Assembly (NCBI GenBank): GCA_964510165.1
Contig: CAZEBC010000080.1
Location: forward strand, 1-11,995
From: an uncultured bacterium
GTDB lineage: Bacteria; Abyssobacteria; SURF-5
Direction of reading: 5' to 3'
DNA: 11,995 bases
Below, one piece after another: positions 3,057 to 11,995 of this stretch (its first letter is position 1; each line of letters begins with the position of its first letter). Below the pieces are notes generated by a model. It ran no database searches. It had not been told where the DNA came from and saw nothing but the letters and a program-made list of their open reading frames with translations. The position numbers were made by a program, and so were the translations under genes.

Positions 3057-3085
3057 TTGACCCAAATCGTTGAGACCGATATAAT
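3057..3085 (+). promoter_or_regulatory. sigma70-type promoter for the barrel-AAC(3)-FkbH-ACP operon
   Basis: TTGACC (3057-3062), 17 bp spacer, TATAAT (3080-3085); 11 of 12 consensus bases. Confidence 0.78.
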
Positions 3086-3172
3086 TACAGCCGTGGCTCA
3101 CACGGTCTTGCCGGGTAATGTTGAACCGAGAATCATCTCTTGCATGCAGAGCGTATCGTGAAATTTCCGAAC

Positions 3173-4309
3173 ATGCCGCTTATTTATCGTGCCTGCCGCA
3201 GGTCTGCGGCCTCTCAGCGACAAGCGGATATCTCATTAAGACCGAATTTGCATGCGACGTACGCATGGCTGTGCGCCGCGCAAGATGCCTCCCCTGATTC
3301 GGGCGTCTCAGGCTGGTACAGCCTCATAAAAGGCTGGTCCGCCTCATATCCCGAAACCACGGGATACATTATCCCGTCCTTCCTCGCATACTCCTCGGCG
3401 CTTTCCGAGCCTGACGCAAGAGCCAGAGCGCTTCGGATGGCCGACTGGGAAATCGAGGCGCAACTGCCCGACGGCGCCGTCCGCAGTGGCGTCATGGGAA
3501 CCACACCCGGTCCCGCCGTGTTCAACACCGGCCAGGTGCTCTTCGGCTGGCTGGCCGCCTATCGAATGACTGGCGACGACCGATACTGCTCCGCTGCACA
3601 ACGCGCGGCTGAATGGTTGCTCAAGAATCAGGACGGCGACGGCGCCTGGCGACGGCATCTGTCGCTTCGAACAACCTCCAAAGTGCAAACATACAATGTC
3701 CGCGCCGCATGGGCACTTGCTCTCGCGGGCCGAGCCTTGGACGAATCTGCATGGGTCCGCGCCGCCGAAAAGAACTGCGAGTGGGCGCTCACGCAACAGA
3801 ACCGCGACGGCTGGTTCGAAAACAACTGCTTCTATGAAAACGAAATCCCGCTCCTGCACACCATCGCTTATACGCTCGAGGGCCTCCTGGGCGTCGGCGA
3901 AACACTGCGCAAAGAACGATACATTGCCGCCGCCCGGGCCGGAATCGAACCGCTCGTGAGAATCTATCAGACCGAGAGAGAGCTGAAGGGGCGATACGAC
4001 CGCGATTGGAGCGGCGCCGTCTCCTGGCGATGCCTGACGGGCGAGGCCCAGCTCGCGGTCGTGCTGCGACGCCTCTCGAAATATTCCGAGGACGACGTGT
4101 ATCCGCACATGGCGCGCTCACTGGCGGAAGGACTTGCATCCACCCAGGACCTCGACAGTCCCCGGCCCGAAACCAGGGGCGCCGTCGCAGGCTCCGAGCC
4201 TGTTTGGGGCGGCTACTGTCCGCTCTCATACATCAGTTGGGGCGCAAAGTTCTATCTCGACGCGCTGCTCCAGGAACTGTTCGGTCTCGACGTGCAGGAG
4301 TTTCACTGA
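3173..4309 (+). CDS. (alpha/alpha)-barrel protein with prenyltransferase/squalene-oxidase (QW-like) repeats, 'SYPETTGY' type; function unknown. Start uncertain (TTG 3140, GTG 3158 or ATG 3173)
   Basis: Repeated Q-x-x-D-G-x-W/F motifs (AQLPDGAV, NQDGDGAW, QQNRDGWF) after Trp-containing helices; blocks SYPETTGY, FNTGQVLFG, TYNVRAAW, HTIAYTLEGL, CLTGEAQ, SWGAKFYLDAL; stop overlaps the next ATG (TGATG 4307-4311). Confidence 0.75.
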   Translation: MPLIYRACRRSAASQRQADISLRPNLHATYAWLCAAQDASPDSGVSGWYSLIKGWSASYPETTGYIIPSFLAYSSALSEPDARARALRMADWEIEAQLPDGAVRSGVMGTTPGPAVFNTGQVLFGWLAAYRMTGDDRYCSAAQRAAEWLLKNQDGDGAWRRHLSLRTTSKVQTYNVRAAWALALAGRALDESAWVRAAEKNCEWALTQQNRDGWFENNCFYENEIPLLHTIAYTLEGLLGVGETLRKERYIAAARAGIEPLVRIYQTERELKGRYDRDWSGAVSWRCLTGEAQLAVVLRRLSKYSEDDVYPHMARSLAEGLASTQDLDSPRPETRGAVAGSEPVWGGYCPLSYISWGAKFYLDALLQELFGLDVQEFH

Positions 4310-5181
4310 TGATCGCTGCTGTCAGACGCGCAATCCCGAAGGGCCTGCTTCCTTACATCGAGCCTGGTTACCGGCAGGTGCGGCGCTGGTCGGCTCGGTT
4401 GGACCGCCTCCTCGATACGCGTACAATGAACGAAACCACGTTCGGAGAACTTCTGAGAAAACTCGGCGTCGTCTCAGGCGCCACAGTCATGATTCACAGT
4501 TCAGCCGACGAGATCGCCCGGCGCGTCCCCGGCATGAACCCGATGAAACTCATAAGGCTCCTTCAGGAATCGCTGGGCACACAAGGCACGCTCCTCATGC
4601 CGACGTTCCCTTTTTCGGGACGACAACTTGAATATGTCGAAACACAAGATTCGTTTGACGTCAAGCGGACGCCCTCACAGGTCGGTCTCGTTACAGAGGT
4701 GTTCCGGCGCATGCCCGGCGTAATCCGAAGCCTGCACCCGACACACTCCGTCGCCGCATGGGGCAGACACGCGCAGGAACTGCTCTTGGAGCATCACCTC
4801 GGCACGGCCTTCGGCGAGAAGTCGCCCATCTTCAAGCTGCGCCGTTACGACGGCAGCATCATCAGCCTGGGCGCCGCGTTCAGCGACAGCTTCACGGTCC
4901 TCCATGTCGCGGAGGAATTACATCCGACGACGCGCGAACGCGCCTATGAAACGCAGACGCGCTGCATGAACATCCTTAATGGCCGCGAGACCGTCCGCTA
5001 CGAATTCCGCGCGATGCGGGGCGACCTGGAACGCAACTTCGGCCGCGTCGAGAAGGCGCTCCTCAAGGACGGCACACTGATATCCATCAATGAATGCGGG
5101 CTGAAATGCCTGTCCGCCAACGCAGACCGGTTCATCACGCGCTCACTGGAACTTATCGAAAAGGGGATGTATCTTTTCTGA
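4309..5181 (+). CDS. AAC(3)/YokD-family (Antibiotic_NAT) N-acyltransferase (290 aa)
   Basis: Family motifs LGVVSGATVMIHSS, GTLLMPTF, FDVKRTPSQVGLVTEVFRRMPGVIRSLHPTHSVAAWG, SPIFKL, TVLHVAEE (catalytic His, codon 4903-4905). Start at 4309 is coupled to the upstream stop; the longer ORF from 4006 overlaps the previous gene. Confidence 0.88.
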   Translation: MIAAVRRAIPKGLLPYIEPGYRQVRRWSARLDRLLDTRTMNETTFGELLRKLGVVSGATVMIHSSADEIARRVPGMNPMKLIRLLQESLGTQGTLLMPTFPFSGRQLEYVETQDSFDVKRTPSQVGLVTEVFRRMPGVIRSLHPTHSVAAWGRHAQELLLEHHLGTAFGEKSPIFKLRRYDGSIISLGAAFSDSFTVLHVAEELHPTTRERAYETQTRCMNILNGRETVRYEFRAMRGDLERNFGRVEKALLKDGTLISINECGLKCLSANADRFITRSLELIEKGMYLF

Positions 5182-7070
5182 TGGAACCACAGGATTTCAA
5201 AAAGGACCTCGAAGACAGGTTGCGCAGGCCGGACAGTTTCCCCGCCGCCTATCTCGACCTGAAATCCCATCTCCGCGCGAATCGCACCGTCAAGGAGTTC
5301 CATTACGGACACAAGCTCCTGCGCGAATTCGAGCAGGACCCGCAACGCTCGCCGTTCACAAGGAAGATCAAACTCGCAATCCTCACGTCATACACGACCG
5401 ACTTCCTCTATCCTCTCCTGAAGGCCGACCTCATGCTCGAGGACATTGCCTGCGAACTCTACGAGCCGAAGTATAACCAGTTCCGGCAGGAGGTGCTGGA
5501 CCCAGCCAGCGGCCTGTACTCGTTCCAGGCGGACATAACCATCGTGGCGTTCGAACTGAAGGACATCTTTCCGGAACAGATGGCCCGCTTCCCGATCCTC
5601 ACCGAAGAGGAAAAGCGGAACTTCCACGCCGAGGTCGTCTCGCTCCACGAAACCATCGCCCGAAGCTATCGGCAGAACTGCAAGAATCCGCGCTCGCTGT
5701 TGCTGCTCAGCGACCTCGCCGCACCCGCACACGCCTACGAAGGCCTTTCTACGAATGAAGCCGACCTCGATACGTTCATCGAAAACATCAATAAAGAACT
5801 CGATTCAATCTGTACCGCGAGCTCAAACACGCACGCGCTGAAATACTCGAAACTGGTCGAACACTGCGGGCGTCGTGGATGGGCCGACCCGCGCCTGTAC
5901 TTCACGGCCAACATCCCCGTCGCCCCGCAAAATTGGCTGCATCTGAGCGACGCCTATGTGCGCTACATCAAGGCGGCCCTCGGCATAGACTTCAAGTGCG
6001 TCGTGCTCGACCTCGACAACACGCTCTGGGGCGGCATCCTCGGCGAGGAGGGCCTCGAAGGTATCCAGCTTGGCGACAGGTACCCCGGCGCCGTCTACCG
6101 CAAATTTCAGGAATATCTGCTCGGCCTGTACGCGAACGGATACATCCTCGCCATCAACAGCAGGAACAACGCAGAGGATGTGCTCGACGTCCTTCACTCC
6201 CACAACGGCATGCTCCTCAAGGAACAGCATTTCGCCGCCATCAGGGCGAACTGGCAGGAAAAAGCGGATAATATACTGGAGATATCGAGAGAAATCAATA
6301 TCTTGCCTGACCACATGCTCTTCGTGGACGATGACCCGGTCCAGATCGAGAAAGTGCGCCTCTCGCTTCCAACCGTGACTTGCCTGCGCCTTGAGTCGCC
6401 CCCCCTCAATTTCGTCGAGCGATTCAGCCGGCTCCGCTGCTTCCTCAGGCTTGGGCTGACCGACGAGGACAAACAGCGGGGACAACTCTACGCGAGCGAG
6501 AGAAAAAGGCGGGAAGCAAAGCACAGCATTGGCTCACTCGATGAATTTTATCGAAGCCTCGCTCAACGCCTCGTCATCCATTGCGGCAACGCGGGCCACA
6601 TCAAGCGCATAGCTCAGCTTACGCAAAAGACTAATCAGTTCAACATGACCACACTCAGGCTGACCGAAGCGGAAGTCGAGCGCATCCTCCAGGACCCTCA
6701 GCACGAGCTTCTCACGGCTGAACTCTCCGACAGGCTCGGCGACAACGGCATCATCGCATACGTTCAGATACGAAGAACCGCTCCCGCGTGGGAGATCGAG
6801 AATTTTCTCATGAGCTGCCGCGTGCTCGGCAGGATGGCGGAAGAGTGCCTCCTGGATTACATCGCTCAGCGGGCAAAGCGAGAGGGAATCGAGTCGCTCC
6901 GGGCGCGCTTCGTTCCCACCGCCAAGAACACACCCTTCGCCGACTTCTATATAAAGAACGGATTCGCACTCGAAAAGGGCGGTCCCCCCGGAGAGAAATG
7001 CTTTGTGCTGCCCCTGGCCGACTACTGCCCGAAATCGTTCCCCATCGAGGTCATCATCAATGAGCAGTGA
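5181..7070 (+). CDS. fkbH: FkbH-like HAD-IIIC phosphatase / glyceryl-ACP synthase with ~270-aa N-terminal extension and C-terminal GNAT-like region (629 aa)
   Basis: HAD motif I VVLDLDNTLWGG (6009-6035), AINSRNN, ANWQEKADNI, FVDDDP, LTQKTNQFNMTT, DRLGDNGII, FLMSCRVLGR (Cys codon 6816-6818). ATG overlaps the upstream stop (TGATG 5179-5183). Confidence 0.9.
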   Translation: MEPQDFKKDLEDRLRRPDSFPAAYLDLKSHLRANRTVKEFHYGHKLLREFEQDPQRSPFTRKIKLAILTSYTTDFLYPLLKADLMLEDIACELYEPKYNQFRQEVLDPASGLYSFQADITIVAFELKDIFPEQMARFPILTEEEKRNFHAEVVSLHETIARSYRQNCKNPRSLLLLSDLAAPAHAYEGLSTNEADLDTFIENINKELDSICTASSNTHALKYSKLVEHCGRRGWADPRLYFTANIPVAPQNWLHLSDAYVRYIKAALGIDFKCVVLDLDNTLWGGILGEEGLEGIQLGDRYPGAVYRKFQEYLLGLYANGYILAINSRNNAEDVLDVLHSHNGMLLKEQHFAAIRANWQEKADNILEISREINILPDHMLFVDDDPVQIEKVRLSLPTVTCLRLESPPLNFVERFSRLRCFLRLGLTDEDKQRGQLYASERKRREAKHSIGSLDEFYRSLAQRLVIHCGNAGHIKRIAQLTQKTNQFNMTTLRLTEAEVERILQDPQHELLTAELSDRLGDNGIIAYVQIRRTAPAWEIENFLMSCRVLGRMAEECLLDYIAQRAKREGIESLRARFVPTAKNTPFADFYIKNGFALEKGGPPGEKCFVLPLADYCPKSFPIEVIINEQ

Positions 7071-7302
7071 TAGGACGCTGGACAGAATCCGCGAGATAAT
7101 ATCGGACGTCACGCGCTTCCCGCTGGGGCAGATACATGCGGATTCCACTCACGAGACAGTAGAGGGATGGGACTCCCTCGCGCAGATCAATATCATCGTT
7201 GCGGTCGAGGCCGAATTCGGCGCGTTCTTCACCCCCGATGAGGTCTACGAACTTAACACCGTCCAAAAAATCCTCAATGCCCTCCAAGACCGAGCCTCCT
7301 GA
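7060..7302 (+). CDS. Acyl carrier protein (80 aa, GWDSL type)
   Basis: Small acidic protein with VEGWDSLAQINIIVAVEAEFG; phosphopantetheine Ser39 (7174-7176); GAGG RBS 7047-7050; overlaps the fkbH end by 11 nt. Confidence 0.92.
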   Translation: MSSDRTLDRIREIISDVTRFPLGQIHADSTHETVEGWDSLAQINIIVAVEAEFGAFFTPDEVYELNTVQKILNALQDRAS

Positions 7303-7326: not shown

Positions 7327-7569
7327 TCATCCGGACGGCTTCCCCCCATACTCCTTCTCCAGATACTCGCATATCACCGCAGACTCATTGATCACTCTGT
7401 CACCGTCCACAATCACCGGCACCATCGCCTTGCCCGTCAAGCGCTCCACCTCCGCCCATCGGCTCGGATGAAACCCCACCCACACCCTCTCACACTCCAC
7501 CCCAAGCTCTTTCGGCTTCCTCCGCACCCGCTGACAGTACGGACACATCCACAAATGATATAGCTTCAT
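7327..7569 (-). CDS. Glutaredoxin / GST N-terminal-domain protein (80 aa, CPYC)
   Basis: MKLYHLWMCPYCQRVR...TGKAMVPVIVDGDRVINESAVICEYLEKEYG: thioredoxin fold with cis-Pro VP and GST-like ES motif; AAGGGAG RBS upstream on the minus strand. Confidence 0.85.
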   Translation of the reverse strand: MKLYHLWMCPYCQRVRRKPKELGVECERVWVGFHPSRWAEVERLTGKAMVPVIVDGDRVINESAVICEYLEKEYGGKPSG

Positions 7570-7680: not shown

Positions 7681-7689
7681 GAATTGGCG

Positions 7690-7724
7690 GTTCCGAAGAG
7701 AAAGGGATTTACCCTCTTCGGAAC
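7690..7724 (+). repeat. Perfect 11-bp inverted repeat (hairpin) in the MFS leader
   Basis: GTTCCGAAGAG (7690-7700) pairs with CTCTTCGGAAC (7714-7724); no U-tract follows. Confidence 0.8.
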
Positions 7725-7761
7725 GGCTGCGGAATGCAACTCTTGGAGGGGCCTCACTCAT

Positions 7762-9072
7762 ATGACTACGGTCAAAGCCAGTCGTGAGTTTGTCGCACAG
7801 AATACTCCACGGTCATCCGAGGGCTGGGGATATCTCGCGCAATTGAGCTTCAACTATTTCGGTTGGCTGTTTTGCTGGACGGTTGCCGCGTCGTACATGG
7901 TGCCGAACACACTGCTGAGGATGGTGGACGATGCCGAGAAGAACACGCGCTTCGGGCTGATGGTCGGCGTTTCGAACGTGTTCATGCTTGTCGTGATCCC
8001 GCTGGCCGGCACGTTGAGCGATCGCCTGCGCTGGCGGCTGGGCCGCCGCCGCTCGTTTTATCTGCCATCGGCGCTTGCAGTGGGTGCGCTGATCTTTCTC
8101 GTGGTTCGGTGCCGGTATTATTCTGCGCTGTTTGTGCTGATGATGCTGATGCACGGAACGTATGCCTGCTGGTTTCCCAACTACGCGTTGCTCCGGGATG
8201 TCGTTCCACTCAACCGCAGAGGCCGCATATCGGGCTTGGCCAACATCACGAGCACGTTGGGGATAATAGTCGGACACACCATATCGCCGTATTTCATCGC
8301 AAAGGGACAGATGCTGGCGCTGGCGTTGATCGCCGGCTCGGCGAATCTATTGGCCAATCTGTGGGTAGCGCTCAAGATACGGGAGGAGTCTCCTGTCGAG
8401 CAGGTGCCCCGCAAGAGCTTTTCGTTGAAGGAAGCGTATGTTCCAAAGCTGGAGGGAGCGAGCAGCCTGGGCTGGCTGGCGGCAGTGAACCTGCTCACCC
8501 AGATGGGGGCCGTCGCAATGCTGTGCTTCCTTCTGTATTTCGTGAAGGACCAGATCGACAAAACCCATTTTAATGAAACATATCGCAACGCCAATCTGAT
8601 CGGAGCGGGCGCGGGCGTGTGTTCCGCAATTGCGGCGGGGTGGGTGGCCGACCGATTCGGGCGAAAGCGCGTGTTGCTCGTGGCCTGCATACTCCAAATC
8701 GCCTGCATGGTTATTTATTTCTTTCTTCCATGGGTTAGCACGACACTGTATTGCTCGGCATTTCTGTTCGGGCTGGGCAACGCCGCGTATTGGAGCATTT
8801 ACTGGGCGTTGCTCTCGGACCTGGTTCCCGAAGGCGAGACGAGCAAATACATGGCCCTGATCCAATACACGAGCATTCTGCCGTGGGCGGTCGTGCCCGC
8901 TGTGCTCGGGCCGGTTGTGGACGGCTTCGGGGCAGCATCGGGGCAAGGTTATAAGGTTCTCTTCATCACGATAATCGTCATACTGACGCTGGGTCTGCTG
9001 CTGATCCCAAGGATACCGGAGACGCTGAAGAAGGGTGAGCCGAAAGCCTTTTCTCCAGCAGTCGGCGTTTGA
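7762..9072 (+). CDS. MFS transporter, probably sugar/glycoside type (436 aa)
   Basis: About 12 hydrophobic segments; motif A copies GTLSDRLRWRLGRRR (extended form seen in GPH/SLC45-like carriers) and GWVADRFGRKR; GGAGG at 7745-7749 favours ATG 7762 over the track start 7684, which lies in the promoter/leader. Confidence 0.88.
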   Translation: MTTVKASREFVAQNTPRSSEGWGYLAQLSFNYFGWLFCWTVAASYMVPNTLLRMVDDAEKNTRFGLMVGVSNVFMLVVIPLAGTLSDRLRWRLGRRRSFYLPSALAVGALIFLVVRCRYYSALFVLMMLMHGTYACWFPNYALLRDVVPLNRRGRISGLANITSTLGIIVGHTISPYFIAKGQMLALALIAGSANLLANLWVALKIREESPVEQVPRKSFSLKEAYVPKLEGASSLGWLAAVNLLTQMGAVAMLCFLLYFVKDQIDKTHFNETYRNANLIGAGAGVCSAIAAGWVADRFGRKRVLLVACILQIACMVIYFFLPWVSTTLYCSAFLFGLGNAAYWSIYWALLSDLVPEGETSKYMALIQYTSILPWAVVPAVLGPVVDGFGAASGQGYKVLFITIIVILTLGLLLIPRIPETLKKGEPKAFSPAVGV

Positions 9073-9137
9073 GATACACGCGGGCACGTTGACGGGAATA
9101 CATTTGGAGAGGCATAAGTTGACGAGGAGAACGACTC

Positions 9138-10046
9138 ATGGCGGTTGATGTGGTCGGCGTGGGACTTGCGGTTGTGGACCTGAAGGTCACGGTCTCGAGC
9201 ATTCCTCAGATCGAGGAGACCGTGCTGGCGTTTGATTTTCACAAGCATCATGGAGGGCCGGTCGGCAATGCTCTCGTGGCGTTACAACGGCTCGGAATGA
9301 AGACGCAGTATATGGGCATGCTCGGGAACGACGAGTACGGCAGGCTCATCGCCGATGGGATGAAGGCTGAGGGTATCGACACGAGCCTGCTGCGCATGGC
9401 AGACGGCGAAAACACTCCATTCTCGATTGTGATGGTCGACGCCTCCACCAAGAAGCGCTCCATCGCGTTCCACGCCGGCTGCGCGCTGTCGGTTCCCGCA
9501 GAGTGCGTAGATACCGAAGTTGTCAAGTCAGCCAAATTGCTCCATGTGGATTTTTGCACGCCTGCCGTACGCGCCGCATGCGAGGCGGCACGGGATGCTG
9601 GGATTCCCATCTCGGTTGACGCGGACGGACTGTACCCCGGGCTGGAGGAGATTCTCGATATGGCGACCATCTTCGTCCCAGCCCGAGAGATAGCCTCTCA
9701 ACTTGTGGGCGAGGATGATCCCGCTAAGGCCGCCGAACTCATCCGAGAAAAGTACAACCTCGAAGTGGTGACCGTCACGCGCGGGAAAGAGGGCAGCGTC
9801 AGCGTGACGCCGGAGGGAACCGTCAGCGCGCCAGGCTTCGAGATCGAGGCGGTTGACACGACGGGGGCCGGCGGCGTATATCAAGGGGCGTATTTGTACG
9901 GCTATCTGAACAGGTGGCCCGTCGAGCGCACAGCCCGCTTCGCGAACGCGGCCGCCGCGCTCATGTGCTCCGGCATGAACGGCTGGGCCGATATCCCGAC
10001 GCGGTACAAGGTTGAAGCGTTTCTGAAAGAGCGCGGCGCCGAATAG
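9138..10046 (+). CDS. PfkB/ribokinase-family carbohydrate kinase with a non-canonical catalytic motif (302 aa)
   Basis: VVGVGLAVVD, GGPVGNALVALQRLG, GMLGNDEYG, VTVTRGKEGS, AVDTTGAGGVY, ANAAAAL; GAGGAG RBS 9124-9129. Confidence 0.9.
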   Translation: MAVDVVGVGLAVVDLKVTVSSIPQIEETVLAFDFHKHHGGPVGNALVALQRLGMKTQYMGMLGNDEYGRLIADGMKAEGIDTSLLRMADGENTPFSIVMVDASTKKRSIAFHAGCALSVPAECVDTEVVKSAKLLHVDFCTPAVRAACEAARDAGIPISVDADGLYPGLEEILDMATIFVPAREIASQLVGEDDPAKAAELIREKYNLEVVTVTRGKEGSVSVTPEGTVSAPGFEIEAVDTTGAGGVYQGAYLYGYLNRWPVERTARFANAAAALMCSGMNGWADIPTRYKVEAFLKERGAE

Positions 10047-10059
10047 TAGCGCAGGCTTC

Positions 10060-10103
10060 TCCCGCCTGGGCGGGACAAAGCGATTGTTCTGAAAATCCCG
10101 CCC
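10060..10103. terminator. GC-rich hairpin(s) between convergent genes, possible terminator
   Basis: TCCCGC-CTGG-GCGGGA (10060-10075); GGGCGGGA (10068-10075) can alternatively pair with TCCCGCCC (10096-10103). No clean U-tract. Confidence 0.3.
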
Positions 10104-10293
10104 CGAAAAAGGCAGGCAAGATGTCTGCGCTGCCGGGACGGCGGCGCTATTGCTTATACAGCCACCACCAGTCGCTGTTGACGATGGAACGCGGTTCGGC
10201 GTCCAAATCCACCCCACGCAATTCTTGAATCTCAGAATGCTATGGCGACGTTTTGTCCCATTCCCACTTTGCACGTAGTGGCGGTCGGGACTA

Positions 10294-10539
10294 TCACTTG
10301 CCGACCACAGGTTTGCCCTTGGCGCCGCCGAAGCGGTACCATTCATCATCCCACAAATAATTGCCGTTCAAATCCAAGAACCAGTACCCAGCGTTAAACA
10401 CGCCGATATCATCGAGGCCATCACCGTTCCAGTCTCCAACAACGGGGGTATCACCGACTCCTCCAAGACCGTACCATCCATCATCCGGCAACGCGCCTGC
10501 CTTCGCGCCCTCCAGATGAAACCACATATCGTGCTCCAT
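10294..10539 (-). CDS. Small FG-GAP/VCBS-like repeat protein or gene remnant (77-81 aa; possible start at 10527)
   Basis: GDTPVVGDWNGDGLDDIGVF...WFLDLNGN Ca-binding blade motif plus second repeat WYRFGGAKGKPVVGK; GGAG 6 nt before ATG 10527; in-frame upstream stop at 10597-10599; no signal peptide. Confidence 0.65.
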   Translation of the reverse strand: MEHDMWFHLEGAKAGALPDDGWYGLGGVGDTPVVGDWNGDGLDDIGVFNAGYWFLDLNGNYLWDDEWYRFGGAKGKPVVGK

Positions 10540-10593
10540 CCTTTCAGTGAAAAAACATCTTATGTTGTACAGGCTCTTGCCAACAGCGACACC

Positions 10594-10623
10594 AACTTAG
10601 TCATATGGTTATTTGTTTGTCAA
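10594..10623 (-). promoter_or_regulatory. possible promoter for the small repeat ORF
   Basis: Minus strand TTGACA (10623-10618), 18 bp AT-rich spacer, TAAGTT (10599-10594). Confidence 0.35.
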
Positions 10624-10705
10624 GATTGCCCTATAGCCGTTCTGGTTTGGTGTCTTGCTGGACCACAGGGCGCGGAATCCTACATTACGGGTGCCGCTTC
10701 CCGCT

Positions 10706-11995
10706 TCACTTGCGGATCATTCCTACGGAGTTCTTGTCGGCGCCGATAACCTCGACGGTGAAGCGGGCGCGGGAACGGCCGATCTTGACCATGTGCGTGC
10801 CGTGGGAGGCGGTGTATTCAATTGGGACACGCTCGTCGTCAACCGGCGCGATGAAACTCGACTGCCCGTTTGATTCGAATGGGGCGATACGAACGTCAAC
10901 GGCATCCGTCGGGCGCTCGCCCACGTAATTCATGACCGGTCCCATGGGCACAATGCCGCCCTCGCGGATGTAAAGCGGTAGGGTTTCGATGTCGGCCTCC
11001 ACCTGTATCCATCGCTCTCCCCGGAGGCGTTCGCCGGTCCACCAGTCGGTCCAGACTCCCTTCGGCAGATAGACCCAGCGCCGGTCGGTTTCGTCGGTTA
11101 TCGGGGCGACGAGCAAGGAATCGCCGAAAAGGTACTCGTTGCCGATGTTCCACACGTTGGGGTCGTCCTGGTACTCGATGACGAGCGCGCGCGCCATGGG
11201 GAGCGACCGCTCAACGCACGCGATGGCCGAACCATAAATGTACGGCAGCAGGCGGTAGCGAAGCCGGATGTAATCGCGACAGATTCGGAATGTGTCGGGC
11301 CCGAAGGAATATATCTCTCGGTCTCCGAACCCGTGGATGCGGCTGTGGGACAGGAAACAGCCGAACTGCATCCAGCGAGTCAGCAGCCGGTCTTCCGTCT
11401 CCCAGATGAATCCGCCGATATCCTGACTCCAGAACTGGAAGCCGGAGAGCCCGAAGGAGAGGCCTCCTTCGAGTTGTGGGATTATGTTGGCCCAGTTCGC
11501 GCTGTTGTCGCCGCCCCAATGGAGCGGATAGCGCTGGCTGCCGGCCCACGCAGAACGCGCCCAGATGGTGGAGTGTCCGGCTACTTCTTTCGTCACTTCG
11601 GCCATTATCTTGTTATAGAGCAATGGATAGAGATTATGCGCCTGATGACCGGGCGTGCCATCGTAGTATACGCCGTCGCTGGGGGCGTCCTCGCCGAAGT
11701 CGACCTTTATCACTTTCGCGCCCATTTTCAACAGCCTGCCGATCCATTTCTTGTGTATCTCAACCGCTCTGGGATTCGTGTAGTCAATGCATCCGACGGC
11801 TCCCTTGAATCCCGGCGTGATGCAAAGGCCGTGATCGTACATTTCGCCGGAATGGTTCCTGATGAACGCGCCGGCTTCCTTCAACTCATCAAACAGGCGA
11901 GAGCCCTCGGGGATGTAGGGAAGCTGCCACAGGGACACCTTGAATCCGAGTTTGGCGAGTTCGGCGAACATTCCTTCTGGGTCGGGGAAACGGTC
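10706..11995 (-). CDS. Glycoside hydrolase family 31, alpha-xylosidase YicI-like; 5' end lies beyond the window
   Basis: Frame stays open to the window edge (DRFPDPEG precedes the tracked Met); IDYTNP, nucleophile motif KVDFGE (11690-11707), HNLYPLLY, WARSAWAGSQRYPLHWGGD (acid/base Asp, 11507-11518), WSQDIGGF, RWMQFG, HSRIHG, RYRLLPYIY, YLFGDSLLVAP. Confidence 0.92.
   Translation of the reverse strand, partial: DRFPDPEGMFAELAKLGFKVSLWQLPYIPEGSRLFDELKEAGAFIRNHSGEMYDHGLCITPGFKGAVGCIDYTNPRAVEIHKKWIGRLLKMGAKVIKVDFGEDAPSDGVYYDGTPGHQAHNLYPLLYNKIMAEVTKEVAGHSTIWARSAWAGSQRYPLHWGGDNSANWANIIPQLEGGLSFGLSGFQFWSQDIGGFIWETEDRLLTRWMQFGCFLSHSRIHGFGDREIYSFGPDTFRICRDYIRLRYRLLPYIYGSAIACVERSLPMARALVIEYQDDPNVWNIGNEYLFGDSLLVAPITDETDRRWVYLPKGVWTDWWTGERLRGERWIQVEADIETLPLYIREGGIVPMGPVMNYVGERPTDAVDVRIAPFESNGQSSFIAPVDDERVPIEYTASHGTHMVKIGRSRARFTVEVIGADKNSVGMIRK

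Follow-up and report, generated by a model that had tools for sequence, protein, structure and literature searches.

An operon of four genes in an uncultured bacterium of the phylum Abyssobacteria may constitute an acyl carrier protein (ACP)-dependent module that N-glyceroylates an amino sugar of a glycan, a reading of the sequence that we hold with about even confidence. The stretch of DNA that we analysed (referred to here as the window) comprises the first 11,995 bases of the 16,625-base contig C80, part of a metagenome-assembled genome of 4.17 Mb that is 97% complete in 325 contigs. The operon encodes a six-hairpin barrel protein, an acyltransferase with the fold of the aminoglycoside 3-N-acetyltransferases [AAC(3)], an FkbH-type loader and an ACP. 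Direct observations are the layout of the operon, the assignment of its products to families, the conservation of catalytic residues and of gene neighbourhoods, and a swapping of the loader between relatives.

Organization of the operon

The listing of open reading frames (ORFs) and a direct reading of the sequence agree on four plus-strand genes behind a single near-consensus promoter, as the original prediction for this DNA had stated. The overlaps that it gave between consecutive genes are found at the same positions by direct reading: TGATG at 4307–4311 and at 5179–5183, and 11 nt at 7060–7070, which run from the ATG of the ACP gene (7060) to the TGA of the FkbH gene (7068–7070). Its title had the order of the genes wrong; the barrel gene comes first, followed by the AAC(3), FkbH and ACP genes. 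Minus-strand genes bound the unit on both sides, as had been claimed. The features are as follows.

3057–3085, plus strand: sigma-70-type promoter-like site TTGACC-17-TATAAT, 11/12 consensus matches (a consensus match only)
3140–4309, plus strand: six-hairpin (alpha/alpha)6 barrel protein, 389 aa, no curated family
4309–5181, plus strand: AAC(3)-fold (Antibiotic_NAT) acyltransferase, 290 aa, PF02522
5181–7070, plus strand: FkbH-type HAD-IIIC loader, 629 aa, TIGR01686 and PF21211
7060–7302, plus strand: acyl carrier protein, 80 aa, PF00550
2703–2954, minus strand: grxC (glutaredoxin 3), divergent upstream boundary, TIGR02181 at 112.7 bits
3031–3003: divergent promoter-like site for grxC, 11/12 consensus matches
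7327–7569, minus strand: glutaredoxin/GST_N-like gene, convergent, by family match

Promoter-like sites number six between positions 2600 and 7800, compared with 1.6 ± 1.5 in shuffled sequences. The sequencing runs listed for this DNA are five DNA runs from three studies, with no RNA run among them. The barrel gene has three candidate start codons (TTG at 3140, GTG at 3158 and ATG at 3173). At the other end, the stop of the ACP gene (7302) lies 24 nt from the glutaredoxin-like gene, and a scan 3′ of the ACP gene found no intrinsic terminator. The glutaredoxin-like gene adjoins the cassette in its closest relative too (71% identity) and is probably not functionally linked to it. The description of the unit as stand-alone is borne out in the window and in this close relative; elsewhere it fails, the unit being a module within exopolysaccharide loci.

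Conservation of the gene set and exchange of the loader

We examined 80 AAC(3)-anchored loci from species-representative genomes, 79 of which (all except L074) contain an AAC(3)-like ORF detected by a hidden Markov model (HMM); the collection searched includes 11 genomes of the phylum of the window. All ORFs were scanned with HMMs built iteratively from the window proteins, and a partner was counted if it lay within 5 kb of the AAC(3)-like gene. Co-occurrence of the four families, the lack of which had been named beforehand as one outcome that would refute the prediction, was found in these loci, with the following counts.

Barrel: 26/79 loci, 18 of them within 200 nt
ACP: 26/79 loci
FkbH: 14/79 loci
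AMP-binding ligase: 9/79 loci
ACP and a loader: 20/79 loci
Barrel, FkbH and ACP together: 10/79 loci

The ten complete loci (L003, L004, L015, L017, L019, L021, L022, L028, L032 and L034) come from taxa that include Acidobacteriaceae, Methylomirabilota, Cytophagia, Nitrospira, Magnetococcales, Planctomycetota, Planctomycetia and a beta-proteobacterium. The sole FkbH locus that lacks an ACP is L007, the contig of which stops 900 bases past the AAC(3) gene. Within the family of the window itself, genome G002 (the same record as L003) has the same four genes together with the glutaredoxin-like neighbour.

A quick maximum-likelihood tree was then computed for the window and 78 loci (79 AAC(3)-like sequences, one row of fewer than 200 residues having been dropped). 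Of the two halves into which it splits, one (47 rows) contains all the barrel-linked rows and 25/27 ACP-linked rows; the other (32 rows) holds two ACP-linked rows and no barrel. The window falls in a clade of 13 rows with a support of 100 in the Shimodaira–Hasegawa-like approximate likelihood-ratio test (SH-aLRT), and an ACP lies within 5 kb in 11 of these rows, the two others being L007, at its contig end, and the solitary L009. The HMM scan found FkbH in six rows of the clade (the window, L003, L004, L007, L012 and L013), and in five others (L006, L008, L010, L011 and L014) an AMP-binding ligase stands in its stead; L005 has an ACP and a ligase, the latter detected by Pfam only. Moreover, the order barrel, AAC(3), ACP, ligase in L010 and L011 is the four-gene layout of the window with the loader exchanged. 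The association with an ACP tracks the AAC(3) clade irrespective of the loader. Over the whole tree the ACP label changes nine times, compared with a mean of 22.6 in shuffles (none of 500 as low), which is a sign of clustering only, since related rows inflate this test.

Several loci vary on this theme. In the closest metagenomic relatives of the barrel (L115:3221–4369 and L116:5001–6149; 56% identity) FkbH follows the barrel after 20 nt and is itself followed by an ACP, and L116 has an AAC(3)-like gene 3.8 kb upstream on the opposite strand; gene order inside the module is therefore fluid. A glycan locus of Scalinduaceae (L006) has two AAC(3)-like genes (4107–5126 and 8923–9864), three ACP-like ORFs, several AMP-binding ligases, a chorismate pyruvate-lyase-like gene and a B12/radical SAM (S-adenosylmethionine) gene, a set that suggests several different carrier-borne acyl groups. 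In two Acidobacteriota loci (L004:6768–7751 and L108:303–1412) a SAM methyltransferase gene lies directly upstream of the barrel, which, taken together with the FkbH and ACP of L004, hints at O-methylated glyceroyl groups. A di-O-methylglyceroyl pseudaminic acid occurs in Campylobacter flagellin. Finally, apparent barrel–AAC(3) fusion proteins in L011, L021 and L022 were rejected: the HMM envelopes put the two genes in different frames, and the fusions are artefacts of the long spurious ORFs of GC-rich DNA.

The FkbH-type loader and its carrier protein

The loader belongs to the FkbH family by TIGR01686 (306.9 bits; cut-off 146.65), with further matches to HAD-SF-IIIC (69.4 bits; cut-off 35.75) and to the FkbH_N domain PF21211 (39 bits; cut-off 27), and its N-terminal and HAD parts match the solved structure of BF1531 (3slr; E 1.1e-40). 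The DxDxT motif of the HAD domain is present as D277-L-D279-N-T in VVLDLDNTLWGG, and both aspartates are invariant in an alignment of 14 sequences (the window and 13 homologues from related loci). In the same alignment S545-C546-R547 of the C-terminal domain is invariant; a cysteine of this domain is reported to carry the glyceryl group in OzmB, and C546 is its probable counterpart. This is the only FkbH match in the whole genome.

The ACP matches the PP-binding family PF00550 at 39.2 bits (cut-off 20.8), with the phosphopantetheine serine, Ser39, inside a GWDSL motif. It scores below the cut-offs for the housekeeping AcpP (30.9 compared with 71) and we therefore regard it as a dedicated carrier. 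A phosphopantetheinyl transferase gene of the AcpS type is found elsewhere in the genome, on contig C28. The original prediction stated that the operon has no polyketide synthase (PKS). In the genome as a whole the four matches to the ketosynthase (KS) domain lie in open frames of 413–442 aa, none of them of modular size; since the genome is 97% complete and in 325 contigs, the absence of a PKS is not proven. Neither FkbG/I/K-type tailoring genes nor a FabH-like gene were found among the ORFs of the window or by profile scans of it.

The AAC(3)-fold acyltransferase

The second gene product matches Antibiotic_NAT (PF02522) at 156.5 bits (cut-off 25; 1.1e-45) and has 379 homologues at E ≤ 1e-10. 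Its best solved relative is FrbF (3sma; E 2.3e-22), and BA2930 and YokD are also close. According to the available part of PMC8956665, TxFHFAE is the catalytic motif of AAC(3)-fold enzymes, and FrbF, BA2930 and YokD have no activity on aminoglycosides. The motif is retained here as T196-V-L-H199-V-A-E202, as aligned to FrbF, and in an alignment of 20 homologues every row has H199 and at least 90% have E202. On the other hand, the protein misses all of the NCBIfam cut-offs for AAC(3) resistance enzymes: it scores 102 bits against 270 for NF033082, 75.5 against 420 for AAC_3_IV and 70.1 against 480 for AAC_3_II.

The donor of all characterized members of the family is acetyl-CoA (PMC8956665 and PMC5884680, each in part), which in AAC(3)-VIa occupies a long surface groove (PMC5884680, in part). 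By analogy, a groove of this type could in principle accommodate the pantetheine arm of a carrier protein. Two features of the sequences are candidates for carrier docking. The AAC(3)-like proteins have a conserved basic N-terminal extension of 40–60 residues (in the region of residues 1–60), and in the 13-row clade of the window A-R-R-V-P replaces the Gly-rich loop that follows the HSS motif (residues 68–75), with R71 in 8/13 rows and P74 in 12/13; the other clades have glycine at these columns in 23–29 rows. The literature consulted on the fold contains no residue-level description of this loop, and we thus claim for it neither an ACP-docking role nor one in binding the CoA phosphate. A complex prediction for the AAC(3)-like and barrel proteins (score 0.00, mark 0.32) is evidence neither way.

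A second AAC(3)-like gene of the genome (C31:10679–11467; 41% identity) lies between genes for a DsbA-like thioredoxin and a BadF/BcrA-type ATPase, with no ACP, FkbH or barrel gene beside it. Alkaline-ceramidase-like, PAP2 and MBOAT genes are found further along C31.

The six-hairpin barrel and its glycan context

An AF2 (AlphaFold 2) model of the barrel protein, computed from a 25-sequence alignment, has an (alpha/alpha)6 six-hairpin fold [predicted local distance difference test (pLDDT) 94, predicted template-modelling score (pTM) 0.93]. The best Foldseek match of the model is the GH88 unsaturated glucuronyl hydrolase 3wiw (E 3e-11, TM score 0.70). VIA-align superposes it on another GH88 structure, 2fv0, with a Z of 33.5 and a root-mean-square deviation of 2.9 over 331 aligned residues, and on AGE-family cellobiose 2-epimerases with a Z of about 31 over 342, GH76, GH105 and YihS following close behind. 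Identity to these structural matches is 8–18%. The modelled fold is shared by enzymes that act on carbohydrates, but with the best matches almost tied a specific activity cannot be read from them. Profile matches are weak and of the alpha/alpha-toroid kind (Glyco_hydro_88, 16.2 bits with a cut-off of 26.6; C5-epim_C, 18.1 bits with a cut-off of 23.3), and the matching clusters of a sequence-cluster atlas are unnamed. A squalene/oxidosqualene cyclase was considered and rejected (TIGR01787, 29.2 bits against 322.7), in agreement with the structural comparison; a match to PF13243 (27.9 against 26.1) spans residues 84–245 only. In the alignment the invariant motifs include SYPETTGYI, FNTG, PxxHTxxY and TGxxQ, and the invariant polar residues E72 (in SYPETTGY), N129, Q220, H240 and Y244; the large number of the latter suggests that the protein is an enzyme and not a scaffold.

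We further scanned the neighbours of 22 AAC(3)-anchored loci with Pfam. The genes that recur beside the relatives encode Wzx-type flippases (Polysacc_synt_3), Wzy_C, Wzz, GT2 and GT4 glycosyltransferases, UDP-sugar dehydrogenases and epimerases, asparagine synthases, a carbamoyltransferase, Poly_export and DUF3485/EpsI. Most relatives have the cassette within an exopolysaccharide or surface polysaccharide locus. The pair of barrel and AAC(3) genes is also carried by the cultured bacteria Massilia sp. SR12 and Pseudoduganella guangdongensis DS3. In the genome of the window an exosortase (EpsH) gene occupies C323:1074–1610, on a contig of 1.6 kb, and probably marks a fragmented PEP-CTERM/exopolysaccharide locus elsewhere in the assembly.

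The barrel also has other partners. In G009, a genome of the window's own family (L101:7643–9690), it is translationally coupled to a Formyl_trans_N gene that takes the place of the AAC(3) gene, and the same barrel–formyltransferase pair, with a 4-nt overlap, occurs in the Acidobacteriota genome G100 (L109:1453–3368). The pairing in two unrelated genomes suggests a two-gene unit of a barrel and an N-acyl or formyl transferase. Barrel profile matches are present in 7/301 sampled Acidobacteriota genomes. Among 80 barrel-anchored metagenome loci, an AAC(3)-like gene is present in 17 (within 150 nt in 13). Of the 40 loci that extend at least 1 kb to either side of the barrel, 8 have one, as do five of the seven closest relatives (54–60% identity). 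The distant barrels (about 40–45% identity) lie directly upstream of genes for a DUF5935/Wzy_C protein and GT4 glycosyltransferases in 8 of 14 scanned loci, and in L121 the DUF5935/Wzy_C protein is encoded upstream of the barrel. The barrel is a general protein of exopolysaccharide loci, one subclade of which is coupled to N-acylating enzymes of two unrelated folds.

Proposed mechanism and alternative explanations

In the N-glyceroylation that we propose, the FkbH enzyme would take in 1,3-bisphosphoglycerate, remove phosphate in its HAD domain and hold the glyceryl group on C546, from which the phosphopantetheine arm at Ser39 of the neighbouring ACP would receive it. The glyceryl thioester of the ACP, bound in the donor groove of the AAC(3)-fold enzyme, would there replace acetyl-CoA, and the Thr/His/Glu machinery of this enzyme would move the glyceryl group onto a sugar amino group, giving an N-glyceroyl sugar, while the six-hairpin barrel would bind or process the carbohydrate acceptor. 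What we infer is which acyl group is carried, that the AAC(3)-fold enzyme takes it from the ACP, that N and not O is acylated, which acceptor is used and what the barrel does. The acceptor is read as a sugar amine because the barrel subclade pairs with two unrelated N-acylating folds, and its coupling to Formyl_trans_N in two unrelated genomes points to an amine that is N-acylated. The chemistry is plausible since N-(D-glyceroyl) amino sugars are known: one occurs in the O-antigen of Pragia fontium (PMC10609480, in part), and another N-glyceroyl sugar is the Pse5Am7Gra of Tannerella forsythia, for which the available parts of PMC5378307 and PMC6120980 state that the genes are unknown, that the basis of N-glyceroylation ‘remains a major challenge’ and that the candidate gene ‘remains elusive’.

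A wider proposal, in which we have somewhat less confidence, is that this AAC(3)-fold clade consists of acyl-ACP:amino-sugar N-acyltransferases with interchangeable loaders and a six-hairpin partner that N-acylate surface glycans across many phyla. FkbH would then load glycerate and the adenylating ligases other acids, with N-glyceroyl and other unusual N-acyl groups being installed.

A number of observations weigh against N-glyceroylation from an ACP. Of the 26 loci that pair a barrel with an AAC(3)-like gene, seven (L007, L029, L041, L043, L050, L069 and L078) lack an ACP within 5 kb. Six of them extend for more than 8 kb on the side where the ACP would lie, so that a contig end explains L007 only; the AAC(3) fold is thus not bound to an ACP everywhere. 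The enzymes of the ACP-less loci presumably use acyl-CoA, and that of the window might too. Genome G007, of the window's own family, has the barrel and AAC(3) genes in a glycan locus with neither FkbH nor ACP, and five Magnetococcales rows in the ACP-rich half of the tree are solitary. Most barrel homologues do not lie beside an AAC(3)-like gene (in the barrel-anchored metagenome loci 17/80 hold one, and 8/40 of those with at least 1 kb on each side). The window itself contains no glycosyltransferase, aminotransferase or flippase gene and so offers no gene context for the acceptor. The genome has three KAS III-like matches (KAS III_C) and two MBOAT matches, possible alternative consumers of the ACP, and the related loci share ancestry, so that the counts are not numbers of independent events.

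In the main alternative, the AAC(3)-like enzyme would be an ordinary acetyl- or acyl-CoA N-acyltransferase acting with the barrel on a sugar, and glyceryl-ACP would be used by another enzyme (the C-terminal domain of FkbH, or a KAS III-like or MBOAT protein encoded elsewhere), giving two separate modifications. We regard it as unlikely, though it merits serious consideration. The pairs of barrel and AAC(3) genes that lack both ACP and loader (L041, L043, L050, L069, L078 and G007) are what it would lead one to expect, and so are the KAS III_C and MBOAT matches and the use of acetyl-CoA by the characterized members of the family (PMC8956665 and PMC5884680, each in part). It does not sit well with the minimal four-gene operons of the window and L003, which hold no other transferase, with the linkage of the ACP to the AAC(3) clade over two unrelated loader types, with the position of the ACP gene immediately after the AAC(3) gene in L010 and L011, or with the lack of such neighbours around the other AAC(3) paralogue of the genome, on C31.

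We find it improbable that the four genes form a self-contained pathway to a small molecule or lipid, such as an N-glyceroyl amine, an amino-sugar metabolite or a lipid head group that bears a glyceroyl group. Both in the window and in L003/G002 the cassette lies among housekeeping genes with no glycan genes nearby, which would suit such a product, and the substrate of FrbF, the best solved relative, is a small phosphonate intermediate. Yet most relatives carry the cassette inside exopolysaccharide loci, the barrel has the fold of carbohydrate-acting enzymes, and the wider barrel family lies beside Wzy_C/DUF5935 and GT4 genes.

To our knowledge, polyketide pathways are the only experimentally established use of FkbH/ACP pairs. 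Such pathways are the subject of, e.g., PMC3679948 and PMC7489565 (each in part), and the genes could by the same token supply a glycolate-derived extender or a tetronate unit, as for FK520, oxazolomycin and the tetronate antibiotics. This is very improbable here, given the four KS matches of the genome in frames of 413–442 aa (none of modular PKS size), the lack of FkbG/I/K-type and FabH-like genes in the window and the location of the relatives' cassettes in polysaccharide loci. Lastly, that the AAC(3)-like gene confers aminoglycoside resistance next to unrelated genes is scarcely credible, for all its Antibiotic_NAT match and intact catalytic motif, as it scores far under every specific AAC(3) model (102 bits against the 270 of NF033082), its closest solved relatives FrbF, BA2930 and YokD are inactive on aminoglycosides (PMC8956665, in part) and it is translationally coupled to both of its neighbours.

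Neighbouring genes

Upstream, on the plus strand, the window encodes a PhoB-type response regulator (217–903) and a histidine kinase with Cache, HAMP and PAS domains (907–2682). The grxC gene separates this pair from the operon, and no link between the pair and the cassette was found. The downstream part (7684–11995) encodes an MFS (major facilitator superfamily; GPH-like) transporter, a PfkB sugar kinase and, on the minus strand, a GH31 glycosidase. These three were rejected as members of the unit because they are not kept beside the cassette in L003/G002 and because the transporter and the kinase have paralogues elsewhere in the genome (the transporter on C115 and C25, 55–63% identical; the kinase on C68, 52%).

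Relation to known systems and significance

The loader and its ACP resemble the FkbH/OzmB-type systems that form glyceryl-ACP: the enzyme is of the same family, with FkbH_N and HAD-IIIC domains and an invariant C-terminal cysteine, and a dedicated stand-alone ACP is adjacent. Unlike the FK520 (methoxymalonyl-ACP), oxazolomycin and tetronate pathways, the window has neither a PKS nor FkbG/I/K, and it lacks a FabH-like tetronate synthase; the consumer is proposed to be an AAC(3)-fold transferase, and the relatives have their cassettes in a setting of polysaccharide synthesis. The transferase shares with the Antibiotic_NAT enzymes AAC(3), FrbF, YokD and BA2930 the fold (by sequence) and the Thr/His/Glu residues of the TxFHFAE motif, whereas it fails the AAC(3) resistance models, has the N-terminal extension and A-R-R-V-P in place of the Gly-rich loop, and is encoded in genomic linkage with an ACP and a loader, not on its own.

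Two carrier-dependent systems invite comparison. The Dlt system D-alanylates teichoic acids by means of the ligase DltA, the carrier protein DltC, the MBOAT protein DltB, and DltD. As there, a small acyl group would be loaded onto a dedicated carrier protein and destined for a cell-surface polymer, and the AMP-ligase/ACP cassettes of L006, L008, L010 and L011 resemble DltA/DltC; however, the transferase of the window is a soluble AAC(3)-fold protein and not a membrane MBOAT, the loader is FkbH, and an amide bond is expected, on an amino sugar produced in the cytoplasm. In butirosin biosynthesis, BtrI and BtrH bring about the ACP-dependent N-acylation of an aminoglycoside, so that here too an ACP-carried acyl group reaches the amino group of an amino sugar. 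BtrH has a papain/transglutaminase-like fold and the acyl group is a γ-glutamylated amino acid; both the fold and the acyl group thus differ from the AAC(3) fold and the proposed glycerate of the window.

FkbH/ACP loading, Antibiotic_NAT transfer and carrier-dependent acylation of polymers are already known kinds of process, which the operon would combine. What the window adds is the minimal, self-contained four-gene form, the six-hairpin partner with its alternative formyltransferase pairing, the natural swap of the loader inside one AAC(3) clade and the clade-specific change of the post-HSS loop from Gly-rich to A-R-R-V-P. Our literature searches found no paper that describes an ACP-dependent member of the Antibiotic_NAT fold, and none that links FkbH or an ACP to an AAC(3)-fold enzyme or to glycan N-glyceroylation; subscription journals are largely outside their coverage, and absence is therefore unproven.

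Rare N-acyl groups on bacterial surface sugars, N-glyceroyl included, shape antigenicity. If the wider proposal is true, it would account genetically for N-glyceroyl sugars and would provide Antibiotic_NAT with its first member that depends on a carrier protein. If the cassette is the route to such groups, it offers a four-gene system that can be tested directly, and it would extend FkbH chemistry from polyketides to glycans. The fold of aminoglycoside resistance would then have a native role with carrier-protein donors, which would bear on the origin of the AAC(3) resistance genes.

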